Assembly (NCBI GenBank): GCA_034370465.1
Contig: JAXMLA010000192.1
Span: forward strand, 1-58,886
DNA: 58,886 nt
Origin: Desulfuromonadales bacterium
GTDB lineage: Bacteria > Desulfobacterota > Desulfuromonadia > Desulfuromonadales > UBA2197
Direction: 5' to 3'
The notes beneath the pieces were generated by a model. It searched no databases, was not told where the DNA came from, and saw only the letters and a list, made by a program, of their open reading frames with translations. Of this stretch, positions 8,658 to 32,504 are shown one piece after another (within the stretch, counting starts at the first letter, position 1; every line of letters begins with the position of its first letter). The position numbers were made by a program, and so were the translations under genes.

Positions 8658-8673
8658 TGCAATGCCGATGCCA
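8658..8673 (-). promoter_or_regulatory. sigma54 -24/-12 promoter of the aor operon
   Basis: TGGCAT-CGGCA-TTGCA on the minus strand, upstream of the riboswitch. Confidence 0.85.
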
Positions 8674-8823
8674 TTTCATAAAACATCGGTTTGCAAATTT
8701 TGTCCATAAAATTTCAGCTGCCTAGCGTGCAAATCTCCCGACTTTTACCGACCGCTCAAAGTGCTGTTTTGGGTATTTTCTCCCCACCACTCATTTCCTT
8801 GGCAGGTGGGGGGGAATTATTCC

Positions 8824-8858
8824 TGGGGAATAAATCTACGCCGTGGCAAAACTCCCCA
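8824..8858. promoter_or_regulatory. Paired 16-bp putative enhancer (EBP-binding) sites
   Basis: TGGGGAATAAATCTAC-gcc-GTGGCAAAACTCCCCA, ~150 bp upstream of -24; recurs at the other sigma54 promoters. Confidence 0.65.
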
Positions 8859-8867
8859 TATCTCCTC

Positions 8868-10286
8868 TTATTCGGACTGCAGATCGAGGCGGTAACTGGC
8901 AAAGGTCTTCAGGCGCCAACAACCGCTAAAGGCGCCGCTACCGTAGGCAAGCTGTTCGAGAAAGTAGTAGAAGATAAAGAGCGGCAACGCCAGCCGCGGC
9001 TGACGTACCTGATGATCGACAATCGCCACCCCGCCGAGCGCCAGGAGGACCAGCAGGCCCAAGGGCGGATAAAGGCAGCTGACGACGAGGAGCGGCACCA
9101 GGTAGTAGCGCAGCAGATGGTAACCGAGATAGTAAGCGAGGCTGGCGATCGTCCGGGCGCGGGCGAGGAGGATCTTGCCGCTGGCGAGGGTCACCCCCTG
9201 GGCGCGGATACGGCGCCCGGTCAGGGCGAGATCGCCGAGGAAAAGGAGGAGGGCGGGGAGGAGGGGCCACAGGGAGCGCCCGACCAGCGCCAGGGCGAGG
9301 AGGCCGAGGATCGTTGTCAGCAGCGGCGGCAGCAGCATCTTCTTGCCGCGCACCGGATGGAGCTGCTGCAGCATCCCTTCCGAGGTGCCGTAATCGAAGC
9401 GCCGTTTCATGAAGGGCCAGAGACGGCTGCGGTGGGCATGACAGACCGAGCCATGCGGCAGGTAGACGATGCTGTGGCCGGCGTCGCGCAGCCGCCAGGT
9501 GAGATCGACATCCTCGCCGACCTGCAGTTCGGCGCGAAAACCGCCGGCTGCGACGAAAGCTGCGCGCCGCAGCAGGAGATTACAGGAGGGGAGGTAGAAG
9601 GTATCGCCGCCGGCGCTGCCGCTCATCGCCCGGCGACCGAGGTTGAGGCTCGACATCACCGCTTCGTAGCGATCGAGGGGGACGGACGAGTGCATGCCGT
9701 CGACCCAGCCGCCGATTGCTGCCACCTGCGGCGTCGCAAAGGCCGGCAGGAGTTCGCGCAGCCACGACCTTGAAGCGGTGCAGTCCGAATCGATAAAGGC
9801 GAGAATTTCACCGCTGGCAACTTGCGCGCCGCGGTTGCGGGCCGCGGCCGGGCCGCCGCCGGTCGCCCCGGAATGAACCAGCCGGGCGCCGAGGTCAACG
9901 GCGACCTGCGGGGTGGTGTCGCTGCTGCCGTCGTCGACGACGATGACCTCCAGGCGTTCGGACGGGTAATCGAGGGCGGCAAGGGACTCCAGACAAAGGC
10001 GCAGATCGACGGGGCGGTCCTTGACCGGGATGATGATGCTGACGCGGGGCAACTCGGCTTCGGCCAGCAACGGCCATTCACTGCTGACGAAGCCCCGCTT
10101 GGCGAGTCGCTCTAAAACCGTCGCTTCAGCAGCGGAGGCCGGGGTGACGCTGGCTTGTTGCAGACGGCGGGCGAGGCGGAGCAGGGGTTTGTTCAGCTGG
10201 ACCAGGCGCAGGGGCCGGGAAGCGACGAGGAGTCCGCCGTCCCCCTGCTCCGCGATGGTGATCCCTGGCGCCAGCCGGTAATTCAT
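8868..10286 (-). CDS. mftF: Mycofactocin biosynthesis glycosyltransferase (GT2)
   Basis: N-terminal GGLLVASRPLRLVQLN, VIVVDDGS, GPAAARNRG, FIDSDC, YLPSCNLL, VGEDVDL, YGTSE; last gene of the mft operon. Confidence 0.9.
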   Translation of the reverse strand: MNYRLAPGITIAEQGDGGLLVASRPLRLVQLNKPLLRLARRLQQASVTPASAAEATVLERLAKRGFVSSEWPLLAEAELPRVSIIIPVKDRPVDLRLCLESLAALDYPSERLEVIVVDDGSSDTTPQVAVDLGARLVHSGATGGGPAAARNRGAQVASGEILAFIDSDCTASRSWLRELLPAFATPQVAAIGGWVDGMHSSVPLDRYEAVMSSLNLGRRAMSGSAGGDTFYLPSCNLLLRRAAFVAAGGFRAELQVGEDVDLTWRLRDAGHSIVYLPHGSVCHAHRSRLWPFMKRRFDYGTSEGMLQQLHPVRGKKMLLPPLLTTILGLLALALVGRSLWPLLPALLLFLGDLALTGRRIRAQGVTLASGKILLARARTIASLAYYLGYHLLRYYLVPLLVVSCLYPPLGLLVLLALGGVAIVDHQVRQPRLALPLFIFYYFLEQLAYGSGAFSGCWRLKTFASYRLDLQSE

Positions 10287-11179
10287 GACGATTCGCTGCC
10301 GATCAGGCCGGCGTTGGTGAAGATCTCCAGCAGCCGTTCCACGGTCGCTTCGCACTCGAGGGTCTGGAGTTTCCCGGCGCGAGGCTTGATGCCGCCGGAG
10401 AGGAGAGCGAGGATCCGCTCAAAAGCCGGCAGGTTGGCATCCGGGGTCACGGTCCGTTGCGGGTTGGGGCGGGGAAAGGCGCAAGGCCCCTTGCCGAGCA
10501 GGGCAGCGGCGGCGCCGATTGCACTCGCCGGCAGACCGAGTTCGGGGAGCCCCCAGAGTTCGAGGGGGGCCGCCAGCGCCGCCATCAGCCCCGGTTGATC
10601 GGGATAGCGTGGGGTGCAGCTGTCGGCCTCGATGAGCAGGGCGCAGGGGAGCGCCGCGATGACCTTCTGGCGCGCGCCGCGATCACATTTGCGCAGCGCT
10701 TCGACACCGCGTTCATGATGCCTCAGCTCCACCGTGGCGCTGAGGCAGGGAATGTCGAGGCGGGCCGCGGCCAAAGCCAGGGTCGGATCGTCGCCGCGAT
10801 CGAGGAGACGGCTGCCGGTGAGGATGAGATCCGGCGCCAGGATCTCGAGGATCCGCCCGCTCAGGCGCGCCGCCGAGACCACGTCGCCGCCGGCAAAGGC
10901 CGAGTTCCAGACGCGAATCGCGCGACCGGCGCCCATGGCGAGGGCGATGCGGAGATGATTATCGAGGCGCTGCGGGCCGATGGCGACCGCTATGACTTCA
11001 CCTCGGTGCGCTTCGGCCAGGCGCAGCGCCTGCTCCAGGGCCGCGAGGTCAGCCGGGTTGGCGATGCGGCGCAGGCCGCGTTCACTGACGCTGTAGCCGT
11101 CAGCGGTGAGTTGTACCGGCGGGCGCGGGTCGCAGGTTTCACGCAGCAGAACAACTATTTTTAACGGTTTATCGTTCAT
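10283..11179 (-). CDS. Electron transfer flavoprotein beta subunit / FixA family (divergent)
   Basis: ANPADLAALEQALRL, ALAMGA, PDLILTG, PRY. Confidence 0.85.
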   Translation of the reverse strand: MNDKPLKIVVLLRETCDPRPPVQLTADGYSVSERGLRRIANPADLAALEQALRLAEAHRGEVIAVAIGPQRLDNHLRIALAMGAGRAIRVWNSAFAGGDVVSAARLSGRILEILAPDLILTGSRLLDRGDDPTLALAAARLDIPCLSATVELRHHERGVEALRKCDRGARQKVIAALPCALLIEADSCTPRYPDQPGLMAALAAPLELWGLPELGLPASAIGAAAALLGKGPCAFPRPNPQRTVTPDANLPAFERILALLSGGIKPRAGKLQTLECEATVERLLEIFTNAGLIGSESS

Positions 11180-11191
11180 TGGATGTGCTCC

Positions 11192-11488
11192 CTAGGTCAG
11201 GCGGTAGGAGACGCCAAAGCCGCCTTGGGGGTAGCGCCAGCGGGTGAAGGCGTCGCGGTGGCAGACGACGTAGCAGGTACCACACTCCAGACAGCCATCG
11301 TGGACAAAGGTCAGCTTCTGGCTCGCTGCATCCCAGCTGTAGCAGCGCGCCGGGCAGGCGACCGTGCAGGCCCGCTGCTCGCAGCCGACACAGATCGCGG
11401 TGTCGACAACGATATGCGGCTCGCGATCGATGGCGAAACTGGTGTAGTCAAAAATCTCGTCGGGATTGATCTTCATAGGGCTCTCCAT
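11192..11488 (-). CDS. fixX: FixX-like ferredoxin
   Basis: CVGC...CTVACPARCY, GCLECGTCYVVC, WRYPQGGFGVSY. Confidence 0.9.
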   Translation of the reverse strand: MESPMKINPDEIFDYTSFAIDREPHIVVDTAICVGCEQRACTVACPARCYSWDAASQKLTFVHDGCLECGTCYVVCHRDAFTRWRYPQGGFGVSYRLT

Positions 11489-12771
11489 CCGGCGTAAACA
11501 TCGGCCAGCAGATTCTTCAGGCCGATCTTCTCCTTGGCGGCGCGGAGGACCATTTTGGTCATGGTCTCCTTGGGGGTGCCGTCGATCCGGTAGATCTCGT
11601 CCATCAGACCGCAGATCAGCTCCGGGTATTTATTATAGATCCGGTCGTTATGGAGCATGTGCGGGGTGCGGCGGTACAGGTTGAGATCCTTGAGGACGTA
11701 ACTCTCCTCCAGCTTCCGCCGGTAAATGGCCAGCCCCGTCTTGCTGAAGTTCTTGTTCTGATGCGCGGCAATCACCGCCTGCGCGGCGATAACCCCGGAC
11801 TGGGTGGCGAGGTTGATCCCCTCCAGGTTGAGACCGGTGACGATGCAGAGCGCCGCGGCATCGCCGGCGACGAGGATTCCGTCGCCGACCAGCTCCGGCA
11901 CCATGCCGTACCCCCCTTCCGGAACGAGGTGGGCGGAGTATTCAAGGAGGCGGCCGCCGCGCAGCAGCTTGGCAATCTGCGGCTGCTCCATGAAGTCGTT
12001 GAGGAGGTCATAAGGGGTCTTGCTCCCGGCGCTGAGACTGGAGAGGTGCATGACCAGGCCGAGGGAGAGGGAATCGTAGTTGGTGTAGAGGAAGCCGCCG
12101 CCGCGCACCCCGGCCGTGCAGCCGACGAGCTCGTTGGAGGCCCCCTGATCGCGGACCAGCCCGAAGCGATCGTCGATGACCTCCTTCGGCATATCGATGA
12201 GGGCCTTGACCCCGACTGCCAGATGCGAGGGGTCGAACTTGGGACGGCGCAGTCCCGCCTTCTTGGCGACAAAGGAGAGGACGCCGTCGGCGGCGATCAC
12301 CACCGGCGCCCGCAGCGAAGAGCCGTCGCGCAGCAGGGTCACGCCGACGACCTTCCCTTTCTCGATGATGACATCATCGACGGTGCTGCTGCAGAGGAGC
12401 GTCGCCCCGGCCTTGACCGCTTCTTCGGCGAGCCAGCGGTCGAACTTGGGGCGGCTGATGGTGTAACCGTTGTAGGGGGTGCGGTCCGAGGCGGCGGTGT
12501 CGAAGTTGACGTTGAAACTCGCCTCGCCGGTCATGAAGGTCAGCGATTTCTTGACGATGTGCCGCTCGAGCGGTGCCTGATTCCAGAAATCGGGAAAGAC
12601 CTCTTCAAGGGCGGTGAGGCGGTGCAGGACGCCGCCGAACATATTCTTCTCACCGGGGAAGGAACCGCGCTCGAGAAGAGCGACATCGAGGCCGGCCCGG
12701 GCCATGGTCAAAGCCGCGCTGGAACCGGCCGGACCGGCTCCGACGACGATGGCATCAAATGTACTCTTCAT
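11473..12771 (-). CDS. fixC: FixC-like FAD-dependent ETF:quinone oxidoreductase
   Basis: VVGAGPAG, ERGSFPGEKNMFGG, AADGV, EYSAHLVPEGG, GDAA. Confidence 0.92.
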   Translation of the reverse strand: MKSTFDAIVVGAGPAGSSAALTMARAGLDVALLERGSFPGEKNMFGGVLHRLTALEEVFPDFWNQAPLERHIVKKSLTFMTGEASFNVNFDTAASDRTPYNGYTISRPKFDRWLAEEAVKAGATLLCSSTVDDVIIEKGKVVGVTLLRDGSSLRAPVVIAADGVLSFVAKKAGLRRPKFDPSHLAVGVKALIDMPKEVIDDRFGLVRDQGASNELVGCTAGVRGGGFLYTNYDSLSLGLVMHLSSLSAGSKTPYDLLNDFMEQPQIAKLLRGGRLLEYSAHLVPEGGYGMVPELVGDGILVAGDAAALCIVTGLNLEGINLATQSGVIAAQAVIAAHQNKNFSKTGLAIYRRKLEESYVLKDLNLYRRTPHMLHNDRIYNKYPELICGLMDEIYRIDGTPKETMTKMVLRAAKEKIGLKNLLADVYAGWRAL

Positions 12772-13796
12772 GCGCCACCTCCTTGAGCTGACTTGACCCG
12801 CGCAATCAGTAGCGGCAGCACTTCGCGCAAATCAGCGACGAACCCTTCGTCGGCATTGGGGAAGATCGGCGCCTTGGCGTCGCTGTTGACGGCAATCACC
12901 TTCTTTGCTTCCTTGATGCCGCCGAGATGATGCATCGAACCGGAGATCCCCAGGGCGACATAAAGGCGCGGCGCCACGGTCTCGCCGGTCTGTCCGACCA
13001 TCCGTTCGAAACCGCACCGCCCGAGGTCGTAGACCGGGCGGGTGACGCCGAGGGAGGCGCGCAACAGACGGGTCAACTCTTCGACCTGGGCGAAACCCTC
13101 TTCATTACAACCGAGACCGGCGCTGATGATGACCTCGGCATCGACGACGTCGACGGTCTGCGGATCGGGCGCAATCCGCTCGATGATCCAGGTCGGTCCG
13201 GCGAGGACCGGCTGGGAACTGCGCCAACGTTTCACTTCCGGCACAAAGCGCTGCATGCTCGGCAGGACGACGGTGCTGAGGATGCGGGGATGGATGGTGA
13301 GAATCAGCGGCCCCTGATTCTCCCAGGTTTTGGTCTCGACCACCTGCACGCCGAGAGCGGCGCGCGTCAGGCTCAGGGTCGCATCATCCCGCTGGTAAGC
13401 GAGGGCTTCGGTGAAGAGCGCTCCGGACAACTCCGCCGCGAGGAGCGGCGCCAGCGATGCGCCGAGATCGTTATGCGGCAAGAGGAGGAGGCGGACGCCA
13501 CTGGCCGCAGCGGCGGCGGCGAGGAGCCGCCCTTGCGCTTCCAGGGAGTCAGCAACCTCGGGGCCGGCCTCGATCAGGGTCAAAGTCGGGGTGCCGTAGG
13601 GGGCGAAATCGTTCAGAGGCGGCGCTTCCGCACCGGCAAAGGCGATGGCCGACCATTCCCCGCCGAGAACCCTGGCGAGGCGCGCGGCCTCCGAGAGGAT
13701 CCCCTTGCCGGCGTCGTCAAGTTCGCCTTGGGCCAGATCGACGAAGACCAGAACCGTCGGCGGGGCGGCGCTGCTTGGTGAAATTCGGCTGGACAT
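12768..13796 (-). CDS. Electron transfer flavoprotein alpha subunit / FixB family
   Basis: GVTRPVYD, MVGQTG, LGISGSMHHLGG, AVNSDAKAPIF. Confidence 0.9.
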   Translation of the reverse strand: MSSRISPSSAAPPTVLVFVDLAQGELDDAGKGILSEAARLARVLGGEWSAIAFAGAEAPPLNDFAPYGTPTLTLIEAGPEVADSLEAQGRLLAAAAAASGVRLLLLPHNDLGASLAPLLAAELSGALFTEALAYQRDDATLSLTRAALGVQVVETKTWENQGPLILTIHPRILSTVVLPSMQRFVPEVKRWRSSQPVLAGPTWIIERIAPDPQTVDVVDAEVIISAGLGCNEEGFAQVEELTRLLRASLGVTRPVYDLGRCGFERMVGQTGETVAPRLYVALGISGSMHHLGGIKEAKKVIAVNSDAKAPIFPNADEGFVADLREVLPLLIARVKSAQGGGA

Positions 13797-15757
13797 CAGA
13801 TCTCCCTCCCGACCTGGTGACCTTCCCAGATCGCCATGTCGACACGCCGGGGAGCGACGCAGTCGCCGATGCGGTGGAGTTCCTTGACCTTCCCCTTGAG
13901 GGCGAAGTAGAGATCGTCATCGACCGCCTGGCCCATGGCGAGGACGACGGAGTCAAAGGGGCCCCACTCATCCCACTGGTTGGAGTAGACGTTGAAGCCT
14001 TTGATGACCTTGGCGCCGATCTCGCCGCTCACCTCCATCACCGCGATATCCGGGGTGAAAGAGACCCCTTTGCCGAGGAGGCGCTGGCGGGTGAGATAAA
14101 GGTCCTGGGTCGGGCCGAGTTCGGCGCCGATAAAGAGGCTCGAACAGATGATGTGGACCTTCTTCCCCTGGTTGGCGAGGAATTCGGCGGTGGCGGTGGC
14201 GCGGTGGTGGCCGTCGTAATCGATGAGGCAGACCTTCTGTCCGGCTTCGACCTGCTGATCAAGGATCTGCCAGACGTTGCAGACCCCCGGGCCATCGGCG
14301 CCGCCGACCGGATGGGGCTTCGGCTTGCTGCCGGTGGCGACGATCACCGCATCGGGAGCGGCCGCCAGGACCATCGCCGCCGTTACTTCGACGTTGTGCT
14401 CGACCTTGACCCCGGCCTTGTCGACCTGTTCTTTTTCATTGCGGATGATCACCCCGAACTCGTCGCGCCCCGCCCCCTTCATGGCAGTGCGCACTTGGCC
14501 GCCGAGGGTGTCGTTGCGATCGAGGAGGGTGACATCGTGGCCGCGCCGGCCCGCCATCTTCGCCGCCCACATGCCGCCGGGGCCGCCGCCGATGACCATG
14601 ACCTTCTTGGCGATCGCCGCCGGTTTCAGCGTCCCTTCCCCCCACTTCTTCTCCAGACCGACCGCCGGGTTCTGCACGCAGCCGAGGGAACGGTTGATCC
14701 CCATGCGGCCGATGCACCCCTGATTGCAGGCGATGCAGTAGCGGATATCGTCGAGCCGTCCTTCCTGGGCCTTCTTCGGCAGGAAAGGATCGCAGATCAG
14801 CGCCCGGCACATGCCGATCATGTCGGCCTGGCCGGCGGCGAGGACCTTCTCGGCCATCACCGGATCGTTGATGCGGCCGGTGCAGAAGACCGGAATCTTC
14901 AGCTTCTCGCGCATGCCGGCAGCGAGGGGGATGGTGTAGCCAAGCGGGGTATGCATCGACCCTTCGACGAGGTAAAGGTTGTAGAAGGTGGCGATGGAGA
15001 GATCCATGAAGTCGATGAGACCGCTCGCTTCCAGAAGCGCGCCGATCTCCTGCACCTGGGCAAGATCGAGGCCGCCGGGGATCATCTCGTCGGCGCACAT
15101 GCGCACCCCGAGGGTGAAGTCGTTGCCGACCGCCTTGCGCACCGCGGCGATGAACATCAGCGGCGCGCGCATGCGGTTCTCCAGGGAGCCGCCGAATTCA
15201 TCCTGGCGGTAGTTGGTCAGCGGCGACAGGAACTGCCGCGCCAGGCTCGAATGGCCGAACTGGAGCTCGACGCCGTCGAAACCGCCCTGGCGGACGTGCT
15301 CGGCGCTGATCGCGAAGTAGCGGCAGACCTCCTCGATATCCTCGATCTCCATCGCCTTGGGAGTCTCACGGAAGAGGATATCGGGGACCGGGCTCGGCGC
15401 CCAGACCGGCAGGCGCGAAATGCTGCCGTCGCACTGCTGGCCGTTGTGATTGAGCTGGCAGAACATCTTGGTGTCGTATTGATGGACGAAATCGGTAATT
15501 TTCCGGAAGCCGGGGATGACCTCGGGATGGAAGGCTTCGACCAGCTTTTCATAAGCGGTGTCGGTCGGATGGACGCTCATCTCCTCGGTGGTGATCAGAC
15601 CTGCCCCCCCCTTGGCCCGCTCGCCCCAGTAATGCAGATGCCGTTCACTCGGCAGGCAATTTTCGGCAAAGTTGGTCAGATGCGGCTGGAAAGAGATGCG
15701 GTTTTTCACCGTCACTTTGCCGATTTTCTGTGGAGAGAAGAGATTGGGGAAGATCAT
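13796..15757 (-). CDS. Mycofactocin-system FadH/OYE family FMN/4Fe-4S/Rossmann oxidoreductase
   Basis: OYE barrel (RAKGGAGLI, GFDGVEL, QFLSPLTN-R-DEFGGSLENR), CIACNQGC-X11-C cluster motif, GGGPGG; directly after mftC. Confidence 0.9.
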   Translation of the reverse strand: MIFPNLFSPQKIGKVTVKNRISFQPHLTNFAENCLPSERHLHYWGERAKGGAGLITTEEMSVHPTDTAYEKLVEAFHPEVIPGFRKITDFVHQYDTKMFCQLNHNGQQCDGSISRLPVWAPSPVPDILFRETPKAMEIEDIEEVCRYFAISAEHVRQGGFDGVELQFGHSSLARQFLSPLTNYRQDEFGGSLENRMRAPLMFIAAVRKAVGNDFTLGVRMCADEMIPGGLDLAQVQEIGALLEASGLIDFMDLSIATFYNLYLVEGSMHTPLGYTIPLAAGMREKLKIPVFCTGRINDPVMAEKVLAAGQADMIGMCRALICDPFLPKKAQEGRLDDIRYCIACNQGCIGRMGINRSLGCVQNPAVGLEKKWGEGTLKPAAIAKKVMVIGGGPGGMWAAKMAGRRGHDVTLLDRNDTLGGQVRTAMKGAGRDEFGVIIRNEKEQVDKAGVKVEHNVEVTAAMVLAAAPDAVIVATGSKPKPHPVGGADGPGVCNVWQILDQQVEAGQKVCLIDYDGHHRATATAEFLANQGKKVHIICSSLFIGAELGPTQDLYLTRQRLLGKGVSFTPDIAVMEVSGEIGAKVIKGFNVYSNQWDEWGPFDSVVLAMGQAVDDDLYFALKGKVKELHRIGDCVAPRRVDMAIWEGHQVGREI

Positions 15758-15795
15758 GATCAAGGCTCCTGGAGATATATTTCGGTTTGACCGGG

Positions 15796-16833
15796 TCAGG
15801 CGGCGGCCTTGGCCGCGTCGGCGATGGAGGTGACGCAGCGTTCCAGACACTCGGGATCGCCGCCGCTGAGATCGTTCTTGAGATGCCAGGCGACCGCCGG
15901 ACAACCGCCGTGGCACTGGTCGAAGCGGGTGCACTCCTCACAGGAGTGGATGCGCAGGGAACGGAACGATTCGTAGATCTCCGAGCTGTCCCAGATCTGC
16001 TGAAAACTCTGGTCGCGCAGCGATCCGGCGAGGAAACGGTCGGTCTGCAAAAAGGCACAGGGGTACATGTTGCCGGTCGGGCCGACACAGCAGGTGAGTT
16101 TGGCCGCGCCGCAGAGATTGAGCCCCAGCCCCTGTCGCTCTTGCGAGGTCAGGGAGAAGAAGCTGTCGCCGGTCCGGACATCGCCGCTCTTGGCCAGCCA
16201 GTCGGAAAATTCGAGGAGCTGGCTCGGGGTCGGGCGCAGATCTTCCCAGTTGTCGGCGCCACGGCCCGAGGGACGGAAGCGACTGACCCGCAAGGAGACG
16301 CCGAGGGACTGGGCGAGTTCGTACATCGCCGGAATCTCGCTGGCATTATGGGTGGTCAAAACCGTATTGATGCTCGTCGGGATCGACGAGGCTGCGAGAA
16401 GCTTGACCGCCTCGGTCGCCCGGGCAAAGACTCCCGAGCCGCGCACGGCGTCACAGGTCGAGCTGGTGGCGCCGTCGAGGCTGACCTGGATCGCTACCAG
16501 GCGGGTCTGCGACAAGCGGGCCACGCGCGCCGCATCGAGGAGGGTGCCGTTGGTGGAGATACAGGTCATGATGCCGCGCTGATGGCAGGCGTCGAGGATC
16601 TGCTCGAAGTCGGGGCGCATGAAGGGTTCGCCGCCGCCGAAGTTGATCTGGAAGACTCCGGCCTGATGCACCTCCTCGACCAGAGCGAGGGCCTCGGCAG
16701 TGGTCAATTCGTCCTTTGCCGCTTCCCCGGAAGCGGAGAGACAGTGACTGCAACGCAGATTACAGAGAAGGGAGACCTCCCAGGTCAGATTGACCGGCGA
16801 GCGCAGCCCCTGTTCAACAAAGCGGTTGCTCAC
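15796..16833 (-). CDS. mftC: Mycofactocin radical SAM/SPASM maturase
   Basis: P-NLTWE, CNLRCSHCLS, QINFGGGEP, CGAAKLTC, YPCAF, C-X2-C-X5-CHGGC, DPEC. Confidence 0.95.
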   Translation of the reverse strand: MSNRFVEQGLRSPVNLTWEVSLLCNLRCSHCLSASGEAAKDELTTAEALALVEEVHQAGVFQINFGGGEPFMRPDFEQILDACHQRGIMTCISTNGTLLDAARVARLSQTRLVAIQVSLDGATSSTCDAVRGSGVFARATEAVKLLAASSIPTSINTVLTTHNASEIPAMYELAQSLGVSLRVSRFRPSGRGADNWEDLRPTPSQLLEFSDWLAKSGDVRTGDSFFSLTSQERQGLGLNLCGAAKLTCCVGPTGNMYPCAFLQTDRFLAGSLRDQSFQQIWDSSEIYESFRSLRIHSCEECTRFDQCHGGCPAVAWHLKNDLSGGDPECLERCVTSIADAAKAAA

Positions 16834-17071
16834 GGAGGAACCCCCTTTCCAGTAGTTTGGTCATGAAGTTGCGCAGTACCTCTTCCTGCCGGACGTTCAA
16901 CCCCGGCGGGAGTTCATCCCGGCTGCGGGCTACGGCAAAGAAGTCAGGGGGGAGGAGACTGCCGGTTTCGGCGAAGAGAAGGCGCGGCCCCCGGGAATCA
17001 TAAAACAGGAGGCCGAACCCCTCTTGCCGGACGCGGCAGGCGGGGTGCAGCTGGATGCCTGCCGCCGCCAT
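16814..17071 (-). CDS. mftB: Mycofactocin precursor-binding chaperone (RRE)
   Basis: LHPACRVRQEGFGLLFY...RLLF; lies between mftA and mftC. Confidence 0.9.
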   Translation of the reverse strand: MAAAGIQLHPACRVRQEGFGLLFYDSRGPRLLFAETGSLLPPDFFAVARSRDELPPGLNVRQEEVLRNFMTKLLERGFLREQPLC

Positions 17072-17072
17072 C

Positions 17073-17189
17073 TTAGTAAACTCCGCAGATGCCGTCGATG
17101 GCGAGCTCTTCGACCTGAATCTCGTTCAGAACCAATGCCTCTTCGCATACTTCGTTTGCCTGCACTTCAACCTCACATTTTGTTTCCAT
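17073..17189 (-). CDS. mftA: Mycofactocin precursor peptide, variant type, 38 aa
   Basis: METKCEVEVQANEVCEEALVLNEIQVEELAIDGICGVY; acidic leader plus IDGxCGVY terminus; RBS AAGGAG. Confidence 0.96.
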   Translation of the reverse strand: METKCEVEVQANEVCEEALVLNEIQVEELAIDGICGVY

Positions 17190-17249: not shown

Positions 17250-17265
17250 TGCAACGATGATGCCA
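17250..17265 (-). promoter_or_regulatory. sigma54 promoter of the mft operon
   Basis: TGGCAT-CATCG-TTGCA, ~60 bp upstream of mftA. Confidence 0.85.
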
Positions 17266-17393
17266 GACAGAAACAACGGTTTATTGCGGAACTTCGGCAA
17301 GTTACCCTGCACAGCAAGATCAGTGAATCGTCCCATGTGGGTATTTTCTCGCCACCTTCAGACCGGTTTGCGTGCTCGGCAGGGCCTCAAGCT

Positions 17394-17426: not shown

Positions 17427-17549
17427 AAAAAAATCAACCCGTGTTCTGTTGCCCCTGGGCGATTCCCGTCGATTACGGAATAAAAAGTGCAAAATATAGT
17501 TTTTTACGAAACAGACCACCGCGACAGCCTGAAACCGGAAGGAGTCTTG

Positions 17550-21154: not shown

Positions 21155-21188
21155 GGTGTTCTCCTGATAACGCTCCAGATAGGCCTGA

Positions 21189-21965: not shown

Positions 21966-21967
21966 GG

Positions 21968-22228: not shown

Positions 22229-22265
22229 CTCTTCTCTTCTCCTTATTCATGTTTGATTCTCCTCA

Positions 22266-23672: not shown

Positions 23673-23674
23673 GC

Positions 23675-24577
23675 TCAGCTCAATTCCTGCACAGCCAGCT
23701 CCGTGACCTTCTGCAGGTCGGTCTGGTGTTTGGCAATCACCCCGACGGTATTGGCAACGACCTCCGGGGTCAGTTGCGTCACCGTCAGGATCGACAGGAC
23801 CTGGGCCCAGTCGAGAGTTTCGGAGACACTCGGGGGCTTGCGCAGATTGAGTTCGCGGGCCTTGCGGAGGAACTCCACCATCTGCCGGGCAAGGGTTTCG
23901 CAGATCTCGGGGAATTTTTTCCGGACGATGGCGACTTCCCGCTCCAGCTCCGGATAGCCGATATAAAGGTAGAGGCAGCGACGGCGCAGGGCGTCGGAGA
24001 TCATCCGCGTGCCGTTGCTGGTGAGGATGGTCAGCGGCTTGCGCTTGGCCTCGATCACCCCCAACTCGGGGATCGAGACCTGAAAGTCGCTCAGGCACTC
24101 CAAAAGAAGGGCTTCGAACTCGTCGTCGGAGCGGTCGATCTCATCGATGAGGAGGAGGGAGCGTTTTTCCGAAAGGAAACTGCGGAGAATCGGCCGCTGC
24201 ACCAGAAAATTTTTCGAAAAGAAGAGACTCTCTTCCGCGGAAAGACGCTCGACCGCTTCGCGCAGATCGGCCGAGACCGAGAGGTAGGTATCGAGCTGGG
24301 TGCGCAGCAACTGGGTATAGAGGAGCTGTTTACCGTACTCCCAGTCGTAGAGCGCCTTCCCTTCGTCAATCCCTTCGTAGCACTGCAAACGCACCAGGGG
24401 GAAATCGAGAGCCGCGGAGAGGGCTTTGGCCAGGCCGGTCTTGCCGACGCCGGGCGGCCCTTCGATCAGGATCGGCTTCTCCATGTGGAGGGCGAGAAAG
24501 ACGGCGGTGGCGATGGCGTCGTCGGCAATGTAGCCGCTGGTATTGAGCAGATCCTTTACCCCTTGTTCGCTAATCAT
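23675..24577 (-). CDS. MoxR-family AAA+ ATPase (CoxD/MadB-like)
   Basis: EGPPGVGKT, RLQCYEG, LLIDEIDR, ALRRRC, KPPSVSETLDW. Confidence 0.92.
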   Translation of the reverse strand: MISEQGVKDLLNTSGYIADDAIATAVFLALHMEKPILIEGPPGVGKTGLAKALSAALDFPLVRLQCYEGIDEGKALYDWEYGKQLLYTQLLRTQLDTYLSVSADLREAVERLSAEESLFFSKNFLVQRPILRSFLSEKRSLLLIDEIDRSDDEFEALLLECLSDFQVSIPELGVIEAKRKPLTILTSNGTRMISDALRRRCLYLYIGYPELEREVAIVRKKFPEICETLARQMVEFLRKARELNLRKPPSVSETLDWAQVLSILTVTQLTPEVVANTVGVIAKHQTDLQKVTELAVQELS

Positions 24578-24630
24578 GATGGCCTCATATCTTGAATTTT
24601 TGTTTTTTGCTGCGATGTCTCTGCCAGATT

Positions 24631-24665
24631 AAAAAGCCGCTGGCCCCCGGTGAGGCCAGCGGCTT
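24631..24665 (-). terminator. Intrinsic terminator after the ADH gene
   Basis: AAGCCGCTGGCC-loop-GGCCAGCGGCTT followed by a T-run on the minus strand. Confidence 0.8.
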
Positions 24666-24680
24666 ATTGCTCTGGTGGCT

Positions 24681-24731
24681 GTAGGAGCGAGCTCCAGCTC
24701 GCGATCATCGCAGGCTGGAGCTCGCTCTTAC
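24681..24731. repeat. GTAG-type REP inverted doublet
   Basis: GTAGGAGCGAGCTCCAGCTCGCGAT...GCTGGAGCTCGCTCTTAC. Confidence 0.7.
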
Positions 24732-24745
24732 GTTTTATTATTAAA

Positions 24746-25951
24746 TTACATGCACTGCTTGAAGATCCCGATCATGTCCTGCAGACCGGTATCGGTCGGG
24801 TTGCCTTCGGTGCAGATATCGTTGACCGAGAAGCGGGACAGTCCTTCGATATCTTTTTCCAACAGGCCAAGATCCTTGAAGGTCTTGGTGATGCCGAGGT
24901 CGGCTTTCAGTTCCAGGCAGGCATTGATGAAGGCTTCGCCGGCCTTCATGTCGGACATGCCGCAGGTGTCGATACCGGCAGCCTGAGCCATCATCTTGAA
25001 GCGTTCCGGGCAGGCCGGGAGATTGAACTTCATGACCGGGCCGAGACCGATGGCGTTGCAGAGACCATGAGGAGCATCGTAGAGACCGCCCAGGGCATGC
25101 GCCATACTGTGAATCAAGCCGAGACCGGCGCTGTTGAAGCTGTAGGCCGCAGCCATTTCCGCCCAGACCATCGCTTCGACCGCTTTGTCATTGTTACGAT
25201 TCATCGAGGACTGACGGAGGTTGCCGAAGATCAGCGAGATGGCGCTCAGGCCCGGACCGTAGGCAGAGACCACGCCGAGGCGGGAGGTGATCGCTTCGAC
25301 GCCGTGGGCCAGGGCATCCATACCGGTGTAAGCGGCGAGGTCGCCAGGCATACACTGATGGATCAGCGGGTCATTGATCGATTTGCTCGGGGTACAGTTG
25401 GGATCGAAAAGGGCCATTTTGTACTTTTTGTCGGTATGATTGATGATCGAGAAACAGGAGACTTCCGAGCCGGTGCCGGAGGTGGTGTTGATGGCGAGCT
25501 GGGGGATGGTGTTGGCTTTGGTCGCTTTGAATGCCCCTTCGAAGGTGCGGACATCCTGGCCGTCATGGCTGTGGACGAGTTTGATCGCTTTACAGGCGTC
25601 ATGGGAGCTGCCTCCGCCGAGGCTGATGATACCGTCAAACTTGCCCGCGGCCAGAATCTTGGCGCCGGCCATAACTTCATGGTCTTTGGGGTTGGGGGTA
25701 ACGCCGCTGAAGACTTCGGAAGCAACCCCGGCTGCCTTGAGGACACCCTGGATGGTCTCGACAATGCCGGTACCACGCAGGCCGGTGGTGACGATCAAGG
25801 CGTTGGTCATGCCGAGAGCTCTGGCATCATTACCGACCATCGTATGTGCACCCCAGCCGACATTGACGGAAGGATAAGCGTGCATCATTTTGATCGGGTA
25901 TTCCAGTCTTTCATTCTTGAGCATCCGTTTGACATCTTTGTTGTGAGACAT
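24746..25951 (-). CDS. Group III alcohol dehydrogenase, MDO/MNO (methanol:NDMA oxidoreductase)-like
   Basis: YPIKMMHAYP, GWGAH, TTGLRGTGI, NPKD, GGGSSHDACK, HDGQDVRTFEG, metal ligands DALAH/HSMAH/PHG; strong RBS AAGGAGG. Confidence 0.88.
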   Translation of the reverse strand: MSHNKDVKRMLKNERLEYPIKMMHAYPSVNVGWGAHTMVGNDARALGMTNALIVTTGLRGTGIVETIQGVLKAAGVASEVFSGVTPNPKDHEVMAGAKILAAGKFDGIISLGGGSSHDACKAIKLVHSHDGQDVRTFEGAFKATKANTIPQLAINTTSGTGSEVSCFSIINHTDKKYKMALFDPNCTPSKSINDPLIHQCMPGDLAAYTGMDALAHGVEAITSRLGVVSAYGPGLSAISLIFGNLRQSSMNRNNDKAVEAMVWAEMAAAYSFNSAGLGLIHSMAHALGGLYDAPHGLCNAIGLGPVMKFNLPACPERFKMMAQAAGIDTCGMSDMKAGEAFINACLELKADLGITKTFKDLGLLEKDIEGLSRFSVNDICTEGNPTDTGLQDMIGIFKQCM

Positions 25952-26138
25952 GGGTACTACCTCCTTGGGATGGGTGTGAACTGACTTCGGTGATACGAAC
26001 AATCAGGGCTGGTCACCGCGACCAAACCCCGCGCCACTAACCAAAAAACTTTGTTCTAAAAGCTGCTAAATACTTTTGCCGCCGAGCCGGTGAGAAAGAC
26101 TCTTTTAAATCGCGATGTTCTGCTTGACTCTGGTAATT

Positions 26139-26154
26139 AGCAAAGAGGGTGCCA
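26139..26154 (-). promoter_or_regulatory. sigma54 promoter of the ADH gene
   Basis: TGGCAC-CCTCT-TTGCT, perfect consensus. Confidence 0.88.
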
Positions 26155-26284
26155 AACAAAACATCGGTTTGAATCAGGCCATTTATGGCTTCATCGAGGT
26201 TTTACAGGGAAGGGATGGCAGGATTTACGGGGAGTTTTGAAACAGCTTTTCCCGGCAACCTCTGAATCAGGGGGGAGCGAGGGT

Positions 26285-26317
26285 ATGGACATACTCCCCA
26301 GTGGGGAATTTCCCCCC
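26285..26317. promoter_or_regulatory. Paired 16-bp putative enhancer sites
   Basis: ATGGACATACTCCCCA-g-TGGGGAATTTCCCCCC; another copy GTGGCTTTTTTCCCCA at 26537..26552. Confidence 0.62.
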
Positions 26318-26576
26318 GCCCGAGAAGAGAGAAGGGCGGATCAAGGAGGATGCTTTTTTTTGTGAGGAGGAAGAACGGGGCTGCAGGGGCGCGATTCATC
26401 GCGCCCGGCTCTTCGTAGCCATGGCGTTGGAGGACGCCGATGCGTCGCGCCGGCACGTCGAGGAATATTGGAGGGAGGGTTGAACAAAAAGAGCCGGAGG
26501 GAAAAACGGAGGAGAGGGGAGGGATTTCTCTGCACTGTGGCTTTTTTCCCCATATTTTCGGTCGATGACAGGAGGA

Positions 26577-26768
26577 TCAGCCCTGCGCGCCCGGTCCGAG
26601 GACGTCCTTGAGAGTTTGCCGCAACAGGGTGGAAAGATCGACTCCGCTCCTGCTGGTGGCCTTTTTCAGGAGCGTCCACTCTGACTCGTCGACCCGGAAA
26701 GAGAGGACATGTTTTTTGGTCTTTTTGGGGGTCCTGTTGCTCCTGGAGTCAAGCTGCTTCGTCCCCAT
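26577..26768 (-). CDS. Small ribbon-helix-helix DNA-binding protein (HgtR-like)
   Basis: KHVLSFRVDESEWTLLKKATSRSGVDLSTLLRQTL: alternating beta strand followed by two helices. Confidence 0.7.
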   Translation of the reverse strand: MGTKQLDSRSNRTPKKTKKHVLSFRVDESEWTLLKKATSRSGVDLSTLLRQTLKDVLGPGAQG

Positions 26769-28261: not shown

Positions 28262-29628
<1,367 letters not shown>

Positions 29629-29629
<1 letters not shown>

Positions 29630-30840
29630 CACTTGTCCTGACATTGGGAGAGTTTCACGACAAATTCCGTACCTTTCCCGAGTTGGCTCTGCACCTCGAT
29701 CACTCCGTCATGTTTCTTGATGATGTCGTAAGTCACCGCCAGGCCCAGCCCCTGCCCCTTGCCGACGACTTTGGTGGTGAAGAAGGGATTCCAGATCTGA
29801 TCAAGCATCTCGGCAGCGATACCGGTGCCGGTATCGATCACCCGCGCCACCACCTGCGAACCCTCGACATCGGTCTCAACCCGCACCGATCCCTTCCCTT
29901 CAATCGCCTGCAAGGCATTGAGCACCAGATTCAAAAAGACTTGGCGTAGTGCACAGGCGTCTCCAAAAATCGGCGGGAGAGGGACAAAAAGATTCTCTTC
30001 GAGAGCGATGTTCTTGTCCCGACCGAGATGACGGACCAGTTCCAGAACTTCGCTGACAATCTCGTTGAGATCGACCCGACCGAAGGCTCCTTCCGATTTA
30101 CGGCTGAAGCTCAGGAGACTGTCGATGATCCCTTTGCAGCGATAGACCTCGCGGACGATGATCTCCAGATAATGCGGGAAATCGGCCAGACGCGGATCGT
30201 CGCTCAAATCGGCAGCCCCGCGAAAGCGGCGCTGCAGGGCTTCGGCATAACCGGCGACCGAGGTCATCGGATTATTGATTTCATGCGCCACCCCGGCTGC
30301 CAGCATGCCGATGCTCGACAGCTTCTCCGCCTGCAGAAGCTGTAACTCCTGAGCGCGGCGTTCGCTCACATCCCGAATCAACAGGAGGGCTTGATTCCCG
30401 GCCAGGGGGTCGGCAATCGGGGTGGCGGTGACATCAAAAAAGAGATTATTACCGCCACGCTTGGCGATGGAGAAGGACATCTGGCAACTCTCGCCGCGCA
30501 GAGCCCGACCGACCGGACAGCTGGCATGGTCTTCAGGGCGGTCGGGATGGAAAAGGACCCGGCAATCCGTGCCGATCATGCTCTCCTCGGCAAAGAGGCG
30601 GGGCGCCAGCTGGTTGCGATACTGTACCAGACTGTCCCGGTCGTAAATGATCACGCAGTCGCCGATGGCATCGAAGACCGCTTGCAATTCGGACTTCTTG
30701 GTGCGCAGGCTCTGGTTGGCGGCTTCCAGTTCCGCAATCTTCTCCTTGACCTCGGCATAGAAGCCGATCTTGCCGGTCTCGATCCCCATGAGGCTATCGA
30801 GAAACTTGTCGTCGATCGCTGCGGACTTGATCTCTTTCAT
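29629..30840 (-). CDS. PAS sensor histidine kinase (ErcS-like N-terminus)
   Basis: AHEINNPM, NLVLNA, DTGTG, PFFTTK; translationally coupled on both sides. Confidence 0.9.
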
Positions 30841-32000
30841 TAAAACGCTCGTTTCAATAGCGCCAACAGATCGTCTTCGTCCGTCACCCGCGGTGAGGTG
30901 AGGAGACAGACATCCCGGCTGGCGCGCTCCGCCAGCACTGGCAAATCTTCCTCCCTGACCCCGAGATGACGCAGACTCCGCGGCGTGCCGCCGGCTTCGA
31001 GAAGGGTATTGATCGTCTCCTGAGTCATCTCCTCCATCATCCGCGAGTCGCTCTCCGGCCGGTGACCGAGGGCGGCCGCCATCTCCGGCAGTTTTTCCTG
31101 AACGACCGGGAAGTCGTAGCGCAGCACCTCGGGAAGGAGGACAGCGTTGACACTGCCGTGGTTGGCATCGTAAAGCCCGCCGATCGGATGGGCCAGGGCA
31201 TGGCCGATGCCGAGGAGCGAATTCGAGAAGGCCATACCGGCATGGAGACTGGCCCGCGCCAGGTTCTCCAGATCGTGCGGGTTGCGCTCGCGCACCGCCG
31301 GGCCGAGGCTGCGCGTCAACAGGGTCAGGGCGCGCAGGGCGTTGACATCGGTCAGGGTCGAGGACGCCAGGGAGAAATAGGCTTCGACCGCGTGACTGAG
31401 GGAGTCGATCGCCGTCGCTCCGACATGCTCATCAGGGAGGGTACGGAGAGTGTCCGGGTCGGTAAGGCTGATATCCGGGGCGACACAGCGGCTCATGATC
31501 GTGAATTTGCACTGCTCCTGGCTATCGTTGACAATCACGAACTGGGAAACATCCGAGCCGGTGCCGCAGGTCGTCGGGCAAAGGACCAGGGGAGGAAGTG
31601 GACGGTGAATCCGGTCGGTCCCGGCGTATTCCCGAATCTTCCCGCCATTGGAGACGAGGATGGCAATTCCCTTGGCCGCATCCATGGCGCTGCCGCCGCC
31701 GAGGCCGACGATCACATCCGCCCCCTGGGTGATATATTCGCGGGCGCCGGCTTCGATTTCGTAATCCTTGGGATTGGAGGTCACCTGATCAAAATAGACA
31801 AAGGTTAAGCCGGCCGCGAGCAGGCTTTTCATCACCTGGTCGACCAAGCCGGCCGCGAAGAGCCCCTGATCGCTGACCAGAAAGACCTTTTTGCCGCCGA
31901 GCCGGCGGGCACAGACGCCGGCCTGGTCGAGGAGCCCCCGGCCGAAGATGATTTCGGGGACTTCAAATTTACAGTGATGGTGCGGTTCTTCCCAATTCAT
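30840..32000 (-). CDS. Iron-containing ADH family protein, ErcA-like
   Basis: KFEVPEIIFG, GGGSAMD, PTTCGTGSDVSQFVI, AFSNSLLG..HALAH, HG. Confidence 0.85.
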   Translation of the reverse strand: MNWEEPHHHCKFEVPEIIFGRGLLDQAGVCARRLGGKKVFLVSDQGLFAAGLVDQVMKSLLAAGLTFVYFDQVTSNPKDYEIEAGAREYITQGADVIVGLGGGSAMDAAKGIAILVSNGGKIREYAGTDRIHRPLPPLVLCPTTCGTGSDVSQFVIVNDSQEQCKFTIMSRCVAPDISLTDPDTLRTLPDEHVGATAIDSLSHAVEAYFSLASSTLTDVNALRALTLLTRSLGPAVRERNPHDLENLARASLHAGMAFSNSLLGIGHALAHPIGGLYDANHGSVNAVLLPEVLRYDFPVVQEKLPEMAAALGHRPESDSRMMEEMTQETINTLLEAGGTPRSLRHLGVREEDLPVLAERASRDVCLLTSPRVTDEDDLLALLKRAF

Positions 32001-32091
32001 TGAGGCTCTCCAGAGAACGCTGTCATCGTGCGCCAGTTGGTAAGGGGCACTTTCCGCGTTATGCCATGAATAAAACACCTAATGCTGTCTT

Positions 32092-32107
32092 AGCAAAACC
32101 CGTACCC
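32092..32107 (-). promoter_or_regulatory. Probable sigma54 promoter of the ErcA-like/kinase/regulator/moaA operon
   Basis: GGGTAC-GGGTT-TTGCT (GG-N10-GC spacing correct, imperfect -24). Confidence 0.6.
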
Positions 32108-32173
32108 AATATGCAAACATGGTTATATTTATCTTCGCGTTTATAACATGGCCACCTATCCCGGCGAAGTCAG

Positions 32174-32208
32174 GCGGGAGTTTCTCTACGCTGTAGCACC
32201 TTTCCCCA
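32174..32208. promoter_or_regulatory. Paired 16-bp putative enhancer sites in the divergent promoter region
   Basis: GCGGGAGTTTCTCTAC-gct-GTAGCACCTTTCCCCA, same geometry as 8824..8858. Confidence 0.62.
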
Positions 32209-32488
32209 CCTGCCAGTATAACCTATTTCCCCATTCTGGGTACCCCCCCTGCAATCAGCAAAATTATCACATCCACGGATTGTGAAATTCCGCTAACTAT
32301 CAGAAAAACAAAAAGTTTTAAAATATTTGCGACGAAGCAGGCGAGCGCAACTGCGACATAACCCTTTTCTTGCAGATCATGGTCGGAGCCGTGCCCCTAT
32401 CCTCTTTCTCCCCACTTCAAGCCGATTGCCTCGGTCGTTTTGGAAAGAATGGTCCCTTCGGACCAGAAAAAACCACTGTTTTATTCAT

Positions 32489-32504
32489 TGGCACCACGGT
32501 TGCA
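32489..32504 (+). promoter_or_regulatory. sigma54 promoter of the DUF4242/channel/porin operon
   Basis: TGGCAC-CACGG-TTGCA, perfect consensus. Confidence 0.85.

Follow-up and report, generated by a model that had tools for sequence, protein, structure and literature searches.

A predicted sigma-54 regulon joining alcohol dehydrogenase, aldehyde oxidoreductase and mycofactocin promoters in a Desulfuromonadales bacterium

Introduction

Do the genes for alcohol oxidation, aldehyde oxidation and mycofactocin synthesis that lie side by side in a Desulfuromonadales bacterium answer to a common switch, and if so to which? The genes form an island at 6.7-35 kb of a 58,886-nt stretch of DNA (contig JAXMLA010000192.1 of assembly GCA_034370465.1), which we call the window, to whose whole length all coordinates refer and whose genome is denoted G000. 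Profile searches with Pfam and NCBIfam show an island of mostly minus-strand genes that includes aor (a tungsten/molybdenum aldehyde:ferredoxin oxidoreductase), the mycofactocin (mft) genes, adh (an iron-containing alcohol dehydrogenase, Fe-ADH) and a two-component system with a sigma-54 activator. Outside actinobacteria mycofactocin has, to our knowledge, not been well studied; in that group it works with nicotinoprotein alcohol dehydrogenases, and a TetR repressor controls it. An earlier note on this DNA had proposed that mft, adh and aor are co-regulated through a shared enhancer for the activator encoded at 28262..29629, and as far as the sequences reach this proposal is supported. Upstream of the island's sigma-54 promoters we find 17-bp dyads that are very probably the enhancer sites of one regulator and that would thereby define one sigma-54 regulon. 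The predicted binder is:

28262..29644, minus strand, response regulator and sigma-54 activator, with a receiver (REC), AAA+ and HTH_8 architecture and a GAFTSA loop

Five promoters share a 17-bp dyad

Scanned with the sigma-54 promoter pattern TGGCAC-N5-TTGCW, the window gives 38 matches at two mismatches or fewer where 23.8 are expected (standard deviation 4.6; 0 of 100 shuffles reach 38). All five -24/-12 elements claimed in the earlier note are in place, with 1, 1, 0, 2 and 0 mismatches. A search of sequencing runs for RNA reads from this DNA returned none, and transcription start sites (TSS) were estimated by counting 12 nt on from the C in the -12 GC.

8658..8673, minus strand, sigma-54 promoter of aor, TGGCATCGGCATTGCA, 1 mismatch, estimated TSS ~8647
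17250..17265, minus strand, sigma-54 promoter of mftA, TGGCATCATCGTTGCA, 1 mismatch, estimated TSS ~17239
26139..26154, minus strand, sigma-54 promoter of the Fe-alcohol dehydrogenase (adh) operon, TGGCACCCTCTTTGCT, 0 mismatches, estimated TSS ~26128
32092..32107, minus strand, sigma-54 promoter of the operon for the ErcA-like protein, histidine kinase and response regulator (ercA), GGGTACGGGTTTTGCT, 2 mismatches, estimated TSS ~32081
32489..32504, plus strand, sigma-54 promoter of the DUF4242-membrane protein-porin operon, TGGCACCACGGTTGCA, 0 mismatches, estimated TSS ~32515

The shared upstream motif had been described as a 16-mer, TGGGGA-N7-YAC. That motif is real, with five exact matches in the window (8824, 8843, 17394, 26537 and 32193), all of them within the four regulatory regions, while the copies at 26285 and 26302 match at one mismatch and those at 17411 and 32174 need two. 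It is however a truncated reading of a 17-bp dyad, TGKRGA-N5-TCYMCA (in full T-G-[T/G]-[G/A]-G-A-N5-T-C-[C/T]-[A/C]-C-A), whose half-site centres lie 11 bp apart, and the 16-mer's 'YAC' tail opens the second half-site, which is the more degenerate of the two. A motif search over intergenic regions and their orthologues, which had been suggested as a check, arrives at the same unit. Regulator orthologues were found in 7 genomes of a 41-genome sample and at 80 loci from public genomes, mostly metagenome-assembled genomes of Desulfuromonadales and Geobacterales but also Geobacter argillaceus and Geobacter sp. OR-1, and 136 regions were taken upstream of the sigma-54 promoters of orthologous adh, ercA, mftA/B and DUF4242; on these regions from other genomes, expectation maximization with 30 random restarts returned the 17-bp palindrome TGTGGA-AATTT-TCCACA as the best-likelihood motif.

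Reading the sites as 17-mers also removes the distinction that had been drawn between pairs with a 3-bp gap and pairs with a 1-bp gap in opposite arrangement: the coordinates were correct, but in all four pairs of the window just 1 bp lies between two 17-mers whose centres are spaced by 18 bp, a single geometry. The sites are given below without strand, with scores in bits from a weight matrix trained on other genomes and centres relative to the estimated TSS; the last of them was added in this analysis and is not part of the earlier note.

8824-8840 and 8842-8858, tandem pair of aor, 16.1 and 16.8 bits, centres ~-185 and -203
8770..8786, third, promoter-proximal site of aor, TGGGTATTTTCTCCCCA, 16.1 bits, centre ~-131
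17393-17409 and 17411-17427, tandem pair of mftA, 17.4 and 12.0 bits, centres ~-162 and -180
17338..17354, third site of mftA, TGGGTATTTTCTCGCCA, 12.7 bits, centre ~-107
26284-26300 and 26302-26318, tandem pair of adh, centres ~-164 and -182
26228..26244, weak third site of adh, CGGGGAGTTTTGAAACA, 9.9 bits, centre ~-108
26536..26552, distal single site, TGTGGCTTTTTTCCCCA, 18.7 bits, the best in the genome, ~-416 from the adh TSS
32174-32190 (weak) and 32192-32208, tandem pair of ercA, 4.7 and 11.3 bits, centres ~-101 and -119
32217..32233, 17-bp site of ercA, TATAACCTATTTCCCCA, 9.2 bits, centre -144 from the ercA TSS
32398..32414, weak, half-matching site of DUF4242, TATCCTCTTTCTCCCCA, 4.3 bits, ~-109 from the DUF4242 TSS

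At aor, mftA and adh the pair thus stands 160-200 bp before the estimated start, at ercA about 100-120 bp before it, and a third site follows 54-56 bp promoter-ward of the nearer pair member (at aor, mftA and weakly at adh). The ercA sites are common to both divergent promoters and lie at -290 to -333 of the DUF4242 promoter, the pair at 32174..32208 being centred ~-333 and -315 from its TSS. The distal site at 26536..26552 is found just 3' of a small ribbon-helix-helix (RHH) open reading frame (ORF).

The sites are specific within the genome

Counted over the four intergenic regions, no hexamer is more enriched than TGGGGA/TCCCCA, which is seen 10 times against 1.12 expected (P=3e-7) and occurs in 4/4 of them, a count that is unbiased by the 16-mer motif. 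In the genome-wide scan that the earlier note had called for, the aor, mftA and adh sites stand out. When a position weight matrix (PWM) was built with one region left out at a time and run over the 3.28-Mb genome (31,752 windows), the held-out aor, mftA and adh regions were each the best non-training locus. With a PWM trained on other genomes alone, 16 matches in the window reach 9 bits or more, and 12 of these fall in the four regulatory regions. Thirty single sites reach at least 14 bits genome-wide, eight of them in these regions; seven of the genome's nine site pairs within 12-80 bp are here; and 18-bp pairs with both members at 7 bits or more number exactly three, namely the aor, mftA and adh pairs. 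The 35-bp composite of two dyads, searched at three mismatches or fewer, has three matches in G000, all in the window, and its reversed control has none.

These figures bear directly on the possibility that we are looking at chance matches of a G-rich hexamer in a genome of 60% G+C. TGGGGA alone is found 39 times in the window, and the number of 18-bp pairs (3) is no higher than the number at other spacings (0-3), so that what is distinctive about the three is that all of them are these high-scoring sites. Chance as an explanation is nevertheless refuted by several results together: the shuffles, the ranks in the leave-one-out test, the recovery of the sites with a motif trained on other genomes, the controls with reversed patterns and the conservation across genomes set out next. 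We give it practically no credence.

Promoters and dyads are conserved in other genomes

The same architecture is conserved in some 80 Desulfuromonadales/Geobacterales loci. A sigma-54-like promoter precedes orthologous adh in 55/55, ercA in 61/67 (many with xGGTAC at -24) and mftA/B in 6/6 regions, and the 18-bp pair is present before adh in 52/55, ercA in 44/61, mftA/B in 5/6 and DUF4242 in 8/14. Genes internal to the operons served as controls, and a sigma-54-like site was found before moaA in 0/37, MOSC in 0/25, adh422 in 0/22, hk670 in 5/31 and AAA in 14/49 cases. For DUF4242 a crude gene-anchored search recovered the promoter in 17/59 regions, a low count because gene order in the DUF4242 operon varies; the divergent promoter was seen in 5/5 inspected genomes holding the region.

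Spacing and position are conserved as well. Centres 18 bp apart account for 112 pairs in the orthologous regions, followed by 56 bp (17) and 74 bp (17), and these two further spacings place a third site 56 bp on the promoter side. At adh the proximal member of the pair is centred at -162 to -168 in 41 of 52 orthologues, compared with -164 in the window. Since aor fell outside most of the fetched flanks, its orthologues were searched directly: in the three genomes with aor at 78-89% identity (G005, G067 and G093) the promoter, a promoter-proximal box (described below) and the tandem pair were present in 3/3, and G019 likewise keeps the same promoter, box and pair, while among paralogues at 55-56% identity the three were present in 0/4.

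Two further features of the adh side of the locus were seen. Clusters of two or three strong dyads lie immediately 3' of the regulator gene in G005, G022, G040, G019, G015, G037 and G038, at 1.2-1.5 kb from the adh promoter and with no sigma-54-like promoter (at one mismatch or fewer) adjoining them; in G005 a radical-SAM gene follows the cluster, whose counterpart in the window is the single site at 26536-26552. The adh leader (25953-26128, minus strand) spans ~176 nt, and most of the 55 orthologous regions have a leader of similar length (144-191 nt). A structured RNA in this leader was considered and dropped, as its fold is no better than that of shuffles (z=0.87) and it has no Rfam match.

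A second palindrome lies next to the promoters

All five promoters carry a further palindrome, AAAC(C)-N2-4-(G)GTTT, also written AAACC-N2-TGTTT, whose midpoint precedes the -24 hexamer by 12-13 nt, which puts this box at roughly -32 to -46.

8680..8693, minus strand, box of aor, CAAACCGATGTTTT (AAAC-N4-GTTT)
17270..17285, minus strand, box of mftA, AATAAACCGTTGTTTC, palindrome given as AAACCGTTGTTT
26158..26171, minus strand, box of adh, CAAACCGATGTTTT
32112..32127, minus strand, box of ercA, TATAACCATGTTTGCA, palindrome given as TAACCATGTTTG
32469..32482, plus strand, box of DUF4242, AAAACCACTGTTTT

The box occurs at 4 of the 63 sigma-54-like sites of the genome, all four of them here, and is absent from the other 59. 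A strict box-plus-promoter pattern has seven matches in the 41 genomes, all at regulon promoters of three orthologue-bearing genomes and none in the 33 genomes that lack the orthologue, and variants of the box are conserved in orthologous promoters. An integration host factor (IHF) site was rejected as its identity, because the box does not fit the consensus WATCARNNNNTTR, as quoted in PMC7962754, and because the other 59 sigma-54-like sites are without it. The RHH protein was likewise rejected as a universal binder of the box, its family being found in only 16/80 loci and boxes of the same type occurring in loci without RHH.

We entertain, as a tentative and rather doubtful idea, that the promoters are two-input devices in which the box would be the operator for a second protein that touches or blocks the sigma-54 holoenzyme and so gates activator-dependent transcription. 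The RHH protein that ends the activator operon may be a candidate for this factor and would then give a negative feedback loop, an idea that we consider weak. If true, such dedicated promoter-adjacent operators at sigma-54 promoters would be unusual.

The box also enters into another account of the shared sequences, namely that they merely descend from duplicated promoter cassettes or a dispersed repeat and have no regulatory role today. Here the likeness between promoters counts in its favor, since aor and adh have identical boxes and a single base separates the proximal site of aor from that of mftA. However, when the four regions are aligned only the motif blocks align while the spacers do not and the distances differ, which argues against recent duplication of whole promoter cassettes; the blocks moreover hold their positions across loci whose regulators are 63-87% identical while the flanks diverge, and nothing similar is found elsewhere in the genome. 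We therefore regard leftover sequence as very unlikely.

The regulator as predicted binder

If the dyads are enhancers, which protein would fill them? The regulator at 28262-29644 matches the profiles Sigma54_activat (6e-65), Response_reg, AAA_lid_14 and HTH_8, it is the only sigma-54 activator in the island, and its own operon carries dyads. The island thus combines the features of the NtrC class: -24/-12 promoters, an AAA+ activator with a GAFTGA-type loop and a helix-turn-helix (HTH), and shared upstream dyads; the genome also encodes rpoN. Half-site centres one helical turn apart (6-N5-6) are expected for a dimeric Fis-type HTH and for NtrC-family sites, and the HTH helix EIDRKTLY(T/S)KLERY is invariant among the orthologues, in keeping with the invariant motif.

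Co-inheritance points the same way. We surveyed 201 genomes of the order for an orthologue (E<=1e-170, 72-87% identity) and for the composite at three mismatches or fewer: the composite is found in 24 of the 27 genomes that carry the orthologue (58 matches) and in 23 of the 174 that do not (27 matches), and the reversed-pattern control in 7 of 201 (7 matches). The orthologue is patchy over at least 10 families, and genomes G001-G003 of the same genus lack both it and the sites, which suggests that the island was gained by transfer or repeatedly lost. We take this co-occurrence as strong circumstantial evidence, not proof, that the regulator acts at the dyads.

The regulator's loop had been singled out for reading GAFTSA instead of GAFTGA. 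It does so read, but this does not distinguish the protein, because orthologues running the same regulon carry GAFTGA: among 80 orthologues the loop is GAFTGA in 46, GAFTSA in 30 and GAYTGA in 4. We therefore reject GAFTSA as a functional peculiarity and see in it only a clade marker (30/80). Variant GAFTGA loops are described as common in related bacteria in the available portion of PMC4641369.

Alternatively the dyads might be bound by another protein inherited with the island, such as the RHH protein (26577-26768) or the IclR protein (21189-21965), or by a sigma-54 activator encoded elsewhere, in which case the local response regulator would bind something else, for example the AAACC-N2-TGTTT box. 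Candidates are at hand: some 19 activator-type loops are encoded genome-wide, and RHH-like genes stand at the end of the regulator operon here and behind the regulator in G005. With a second regulon-specific palindrome at every promoter there are also two elements to assign. On the other hand RHH is found in only 16/80 and IclR in 4/80 related loci, in which the dyads are near-universal; and the box, a 5-N2-4-5 palindrome, lies too near the promoter for a looping activator, whereas the dyads, laid out as 6-N5-6 and standing at -100 to -200, match the usual form and place of NtrC-family enhancers. Finally, it is with orthologues of this very regulator that the composite co-occurs. On balance another binder seems unlikely to us.

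Several observations nonetheless weigh against the regulator at 28262-29644 as the common activator of all five units. The regulator operon itself is the weakest case: its promoter has two mismatches at -24, its dyads score 4.7, 11.3 and 9.2 bits, and in the leave-one-region-out scan the ercA/DUF4242 region was only the 19th locus in the genome, the DUF4242-proximal site reaching only 4.3 bits. The 18-bp spacing sets adjacent dimers on different helical faces, which we find hard to square with any one assembly model. Three of the 27 orthologue-bearing genomes (G038, G076 and G129) are without a composite match, and the matches in 23/174 orthologue-negative genomes exceed the control rate of 7/201; some of these are near-identical to genuine sites elsewhere (G157, G126 and G190) and may well reflect regulators that were missed, or left unassembled, in fragmented assemblies. 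The genomes are related, so the 2x2 table of co-occurrence overstates their independence. A test of protein-DNA covariation has no power, since the recognition helix does not vary and the half-sites TGGGGA, TGTGGA and TGTAGA occur side by side at every locus. Lastly, the box shows that at least one further determinant acts at these promoters.

Genes and operons of the island

Behind the five promoters lie the following genes, in which the extent of the mft and adh operons is presumed, for mft from contiguity on the same strand.

6742..8568, minus strand, aor, tungsten/molybdenum aldehyde:ferredoxin oxidoreductase (AFOR_N, AFOR_C)
8868..17189, minus strand, presumed operon behind the mftA promoter: mftA, mftB, mftC, an old yellow enzyme (OYE)/FadH oxidoreductase, electron transfer flavoprotein (ETF) alpha, FixC, FixX, ETF beta and mftF
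18070..25952, minus strand, presumed adh operon: adh, MoxR-like AAA, VWA, orf86, IclR, a glycerol-dehydrogenase-like gene and the PAS kinase hk670
26577..26768, minus strand, small RHH-like ORF, last after moaA and MOSC, with sub-threshold NikA-like, DUF6290 and RHH_3 matches
29629..30840, minus strand, cytoplasmic PAS histidine kinase, presumed partner of the activator, best family AtoS
30840..32078, minus strand, ErcA-like Fe-ADH-family protein, first gene of the regulator operon (NF041833, 406 bits)
32743-34779, plus strand, DUF4242-membrane protein-porin operon, divergent from the regulator operon

The aor start codon is probably near 8493, downstream of a riboswitch (see below), as alignments of its orthologues open at residues 22-26. 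Profile scores place the mft genes in the mycofactocin system: MftA (39.5 bits, cut-off 25), a precursor with the family's C-terminal motif, MftB (53.3, cut-off 33), MftC (355.2, cut-off 265) and MftF (379.1, cut-off 280) all exceed their NCBIfam cut-offs, as does mycofact_OYE_2 (961.5, cut-off 793). The island also includes a divergent NUDIX gene, and no TetR-family gene was found among the 34 ORFs scanned at 2800-36636.

The adh product (24746-26002) is an Fe-ADH whose nearest family is the N,N-dimethyl-4-nitrosoaniline (NDMA)-type nicotinoprotein methanol dehydrogenase and which scores 299.6 bits against the NCBIfam ErcA model. Its gene order adh-AAA-VWA-orf86-hk670 is kept in other genomes. 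The IclR and glycerol-dehydrogenase-like (gldA-like) genes (20024-21965, minus strand) are extras inside this run, absent from that position in the 7 other genomes inspected, with IclR in 4/80 loci. The last gene of the run, hk670 (18070-20082, minus strand), encodes a kinase paralogous to the regulator's presumed partner (tblastn overlaps at 49-52% identity) and could feed back onto the same regulator. Neither kinase has a hydrophobic segment, and thus both are cytoplasmic sensors.

The regulator operon runs from ~32000 down to 26577 in the order ErcA-like Fe-ADH, PAS histidine kinase, response regulator, moaA, MOSC and the small RHH ORF, the first gene likely starting at the ATG near 32000. 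For this gene the label ErcA-like holds insofar as ErcA is its best NCBIfam model, but its 406 bits lie below the cut-off of 550 and do not make it a member. A 65%-identical homologue of the RHH protein directly follows the regulator gene in G005, and by jackhmmer the family occurs in 16/80 related loci. Between DUF4242 and the porin, a 176-aa protein (33064-33594, plus strand) is strongly hydrophobic throughout (60 windows with Kyte-Doolittle values of at least 1.6); it has no family match and is conserved in 57/80 loci.

Riboswitches and a candidate sixth promoter

Two Moco/Wco (molybdenum/tungsten cofactor) riboswitches were found in the window.

8498..8615, minus strand, RF01055, in the aor leader, 67.4 bits (gathering score 36)
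4845-4963, minus strand, RF01055, second copy, 66 bits, before moaE and periplasmic-binding/permease ABC genes

The first lies downstream of the aor sigma-54 promoter and forms a second control layer outside the enhancer, so that aor would be controlled at initiation through the enhancer and then by cofactor availability.

On another contig of G000 (C19, L130) a sigma-54-like promoter, TGGCGCGACTTTTGCT (3625-3640, minus strand), precedes hdrC-hdrB-hdrA-like genes, and a dyad at 3767-3783, the genome's second-best, is centred at ~-161. The orthologous hdr genes of G067 have a promoter plus two dyads, whereas hdrC was not found at E<=1e-40 in G005, G019, G093 and G022, and by random placement the coincidence of promoter and site has P=0.37, which is not significant alone. 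Given that P value and the missing hdrC matches we reject hdrCBA as a proven sixth member of the regulon and retain it as a candidate.

Proposed mechanism and significance

The sequences show a set of elements that are specific, conserved and inherited together with the regulator; from this we infer binding, a signal and looping along the lines of a standard enhancer-binding-protein switch, a mechanism that is conventional. The cytoplasmic PAS kinase (29629-30840) would sense the availability of alcohol or aldehyde, or a redox consequence of it, possibly with contributions from the ErcA-like dehydrogenase homologue and the paralogous kinase hk670, and would phosphorylate the regulator (28262-29644). 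Regulator dimers would then fill two or three dyads and assemble an AAA+ hexamer, which via DNA looping would remodel the closed sigma-54 holoenzyme at -24/-12. The predicted output is the joint induction of five units: the Fe-alcohol dehydrogenase; the tungsten/molybdenum aldehyde:ferredoxin oxidoreductase; the mycofactocin operon with OYE-ETF-FixCX; the porin/membrane-protein operon; and, by positive autoregulation, the regulator operon itself.

A regulon of this kind offers evidence independent of protein homology that ties mft with its embedded OYE-ETF-FixCX electron chain, an Fe-alcohol dehydrogenase and a tungsten aldehyde oxidoreductase together in anaerobic metal-reducing Desulfuromonadia. 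Its predictions can be tested: an enhancer of 35 bp, start sites at the estimated positions, a set of target operons and a physiological role of mycofactocin in anaerobic alcohol oxidation. The system is present in the cultured Geobacter argillaceus ATCC BAA-1139 and Geobacter sp. OR-1. New to the present analysis are the box palindrome, the Moco riboswitch in the aor leader and the candidate hdrCBA promoter on another contig.

Comparison with known systems

In the full texts that we searched, outside subscription journals and RegPrecise-type databases, neither this regulon nor any control of mycofactocin by sigma-54 was described. At glnAp2, NtrC sites are 17-bp dyads about three turns apart. 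Similar to that class, the system described here has a REC-AAA+-HTH_8 activator, -24/-12 promoters, an autoregulated regulator operon (as predicted) and 17-bp dyads (6-N5-6) 100-200 bp upstream, several per promoter, consistent with a hexamer built from dimers. However, its half-site is TGKRGA, its dyads abut (18-bp centres) rather than standing about three turns apart, its predicted output is alcohol/aldehyde oxidation and cofactor synthesis rather than nitrogen assimilation, and the regulator scores 371.6 against the NCBIfam ntrC model, below the cut-off of 558.6.

The Pseudomonas aeruginosa ErcS'/ErcA/ErdR system places an Fe-ADH-family 'regulatory' protein beside a cytoplasmic sensor kinase in the control of ethanol oxidation. 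The likeness lies in the protein at 30840-32078, for which ErcA is the best NCBIfam match, and in its adjoining cytoplasmic kinase; the difference is that here the output regulator is a sigma-54 activator with its own predicted enhancer. In mycobacteria the TetR-type MftR represses mftA-F at a sigma-70-type promoter. Both systems concern transcription of the mft operon, but here mftA has a sigma-54 promoter with a predicted enhancer.

Among NCBIfam families the regulator scores best with AtoC (NF008469, 420.1 against 714 bits) and the kinase with AtoS (NF008468, 251.1 against 646 bits), and because these scores lie below the equivalog cut-offs the window's proteins are not AtoC and AtoS. According to PMC3118216, Escherichia coli AtoC binds a 40-bp palindrome, composed of two inverted 20-bp sites that directly adjoin, upstream of the sigma-54 promoter of the catabolic atoDAEB operon. 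Its adjoining sites resemble our 35-bp composite, whereas here each 17-mer is itself a dyad, and motif and regulon content differ. With regard to the pathway, proteomics of Geobacter metallireducens, to the extent accessible in PMC7324539, treats an ethanol dehydrogenase and an AOR (aldehyde oxidoreductase) as the ethanol pathway.

In function the closest analogue appears to be DVU2394 of Desulfovibrio vulgaris Hildenborough, which together with DVU2395 was shown in PMC3333781, by DNA affinity purification on arrays (DAP-chip), to control the adh-heterodisulfide reductase operon DVU2405-2397; the same text gives its validated motif as the direct repeat TGGCATATGTGGCAT at -319, reported only in two D. 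vulgaris strains. The accessible part of PMC4641369 gives its loop as the variant GSFTGA. The comparison extends to a sigma-54 two-component regulator of adh with a variant loop, and the candidate hdrCBA promoter would parallel the DVU2394 regulon. The two systems differ in that DVU2394 uses the direct repeat TGGCAT-N3-TGGCAT, with neither mycofactocin nor aor among the targets reported in the available text, whereas the island described here has tandem 17-bp dyads at its mycofactocin, aor and adh promoters alike.

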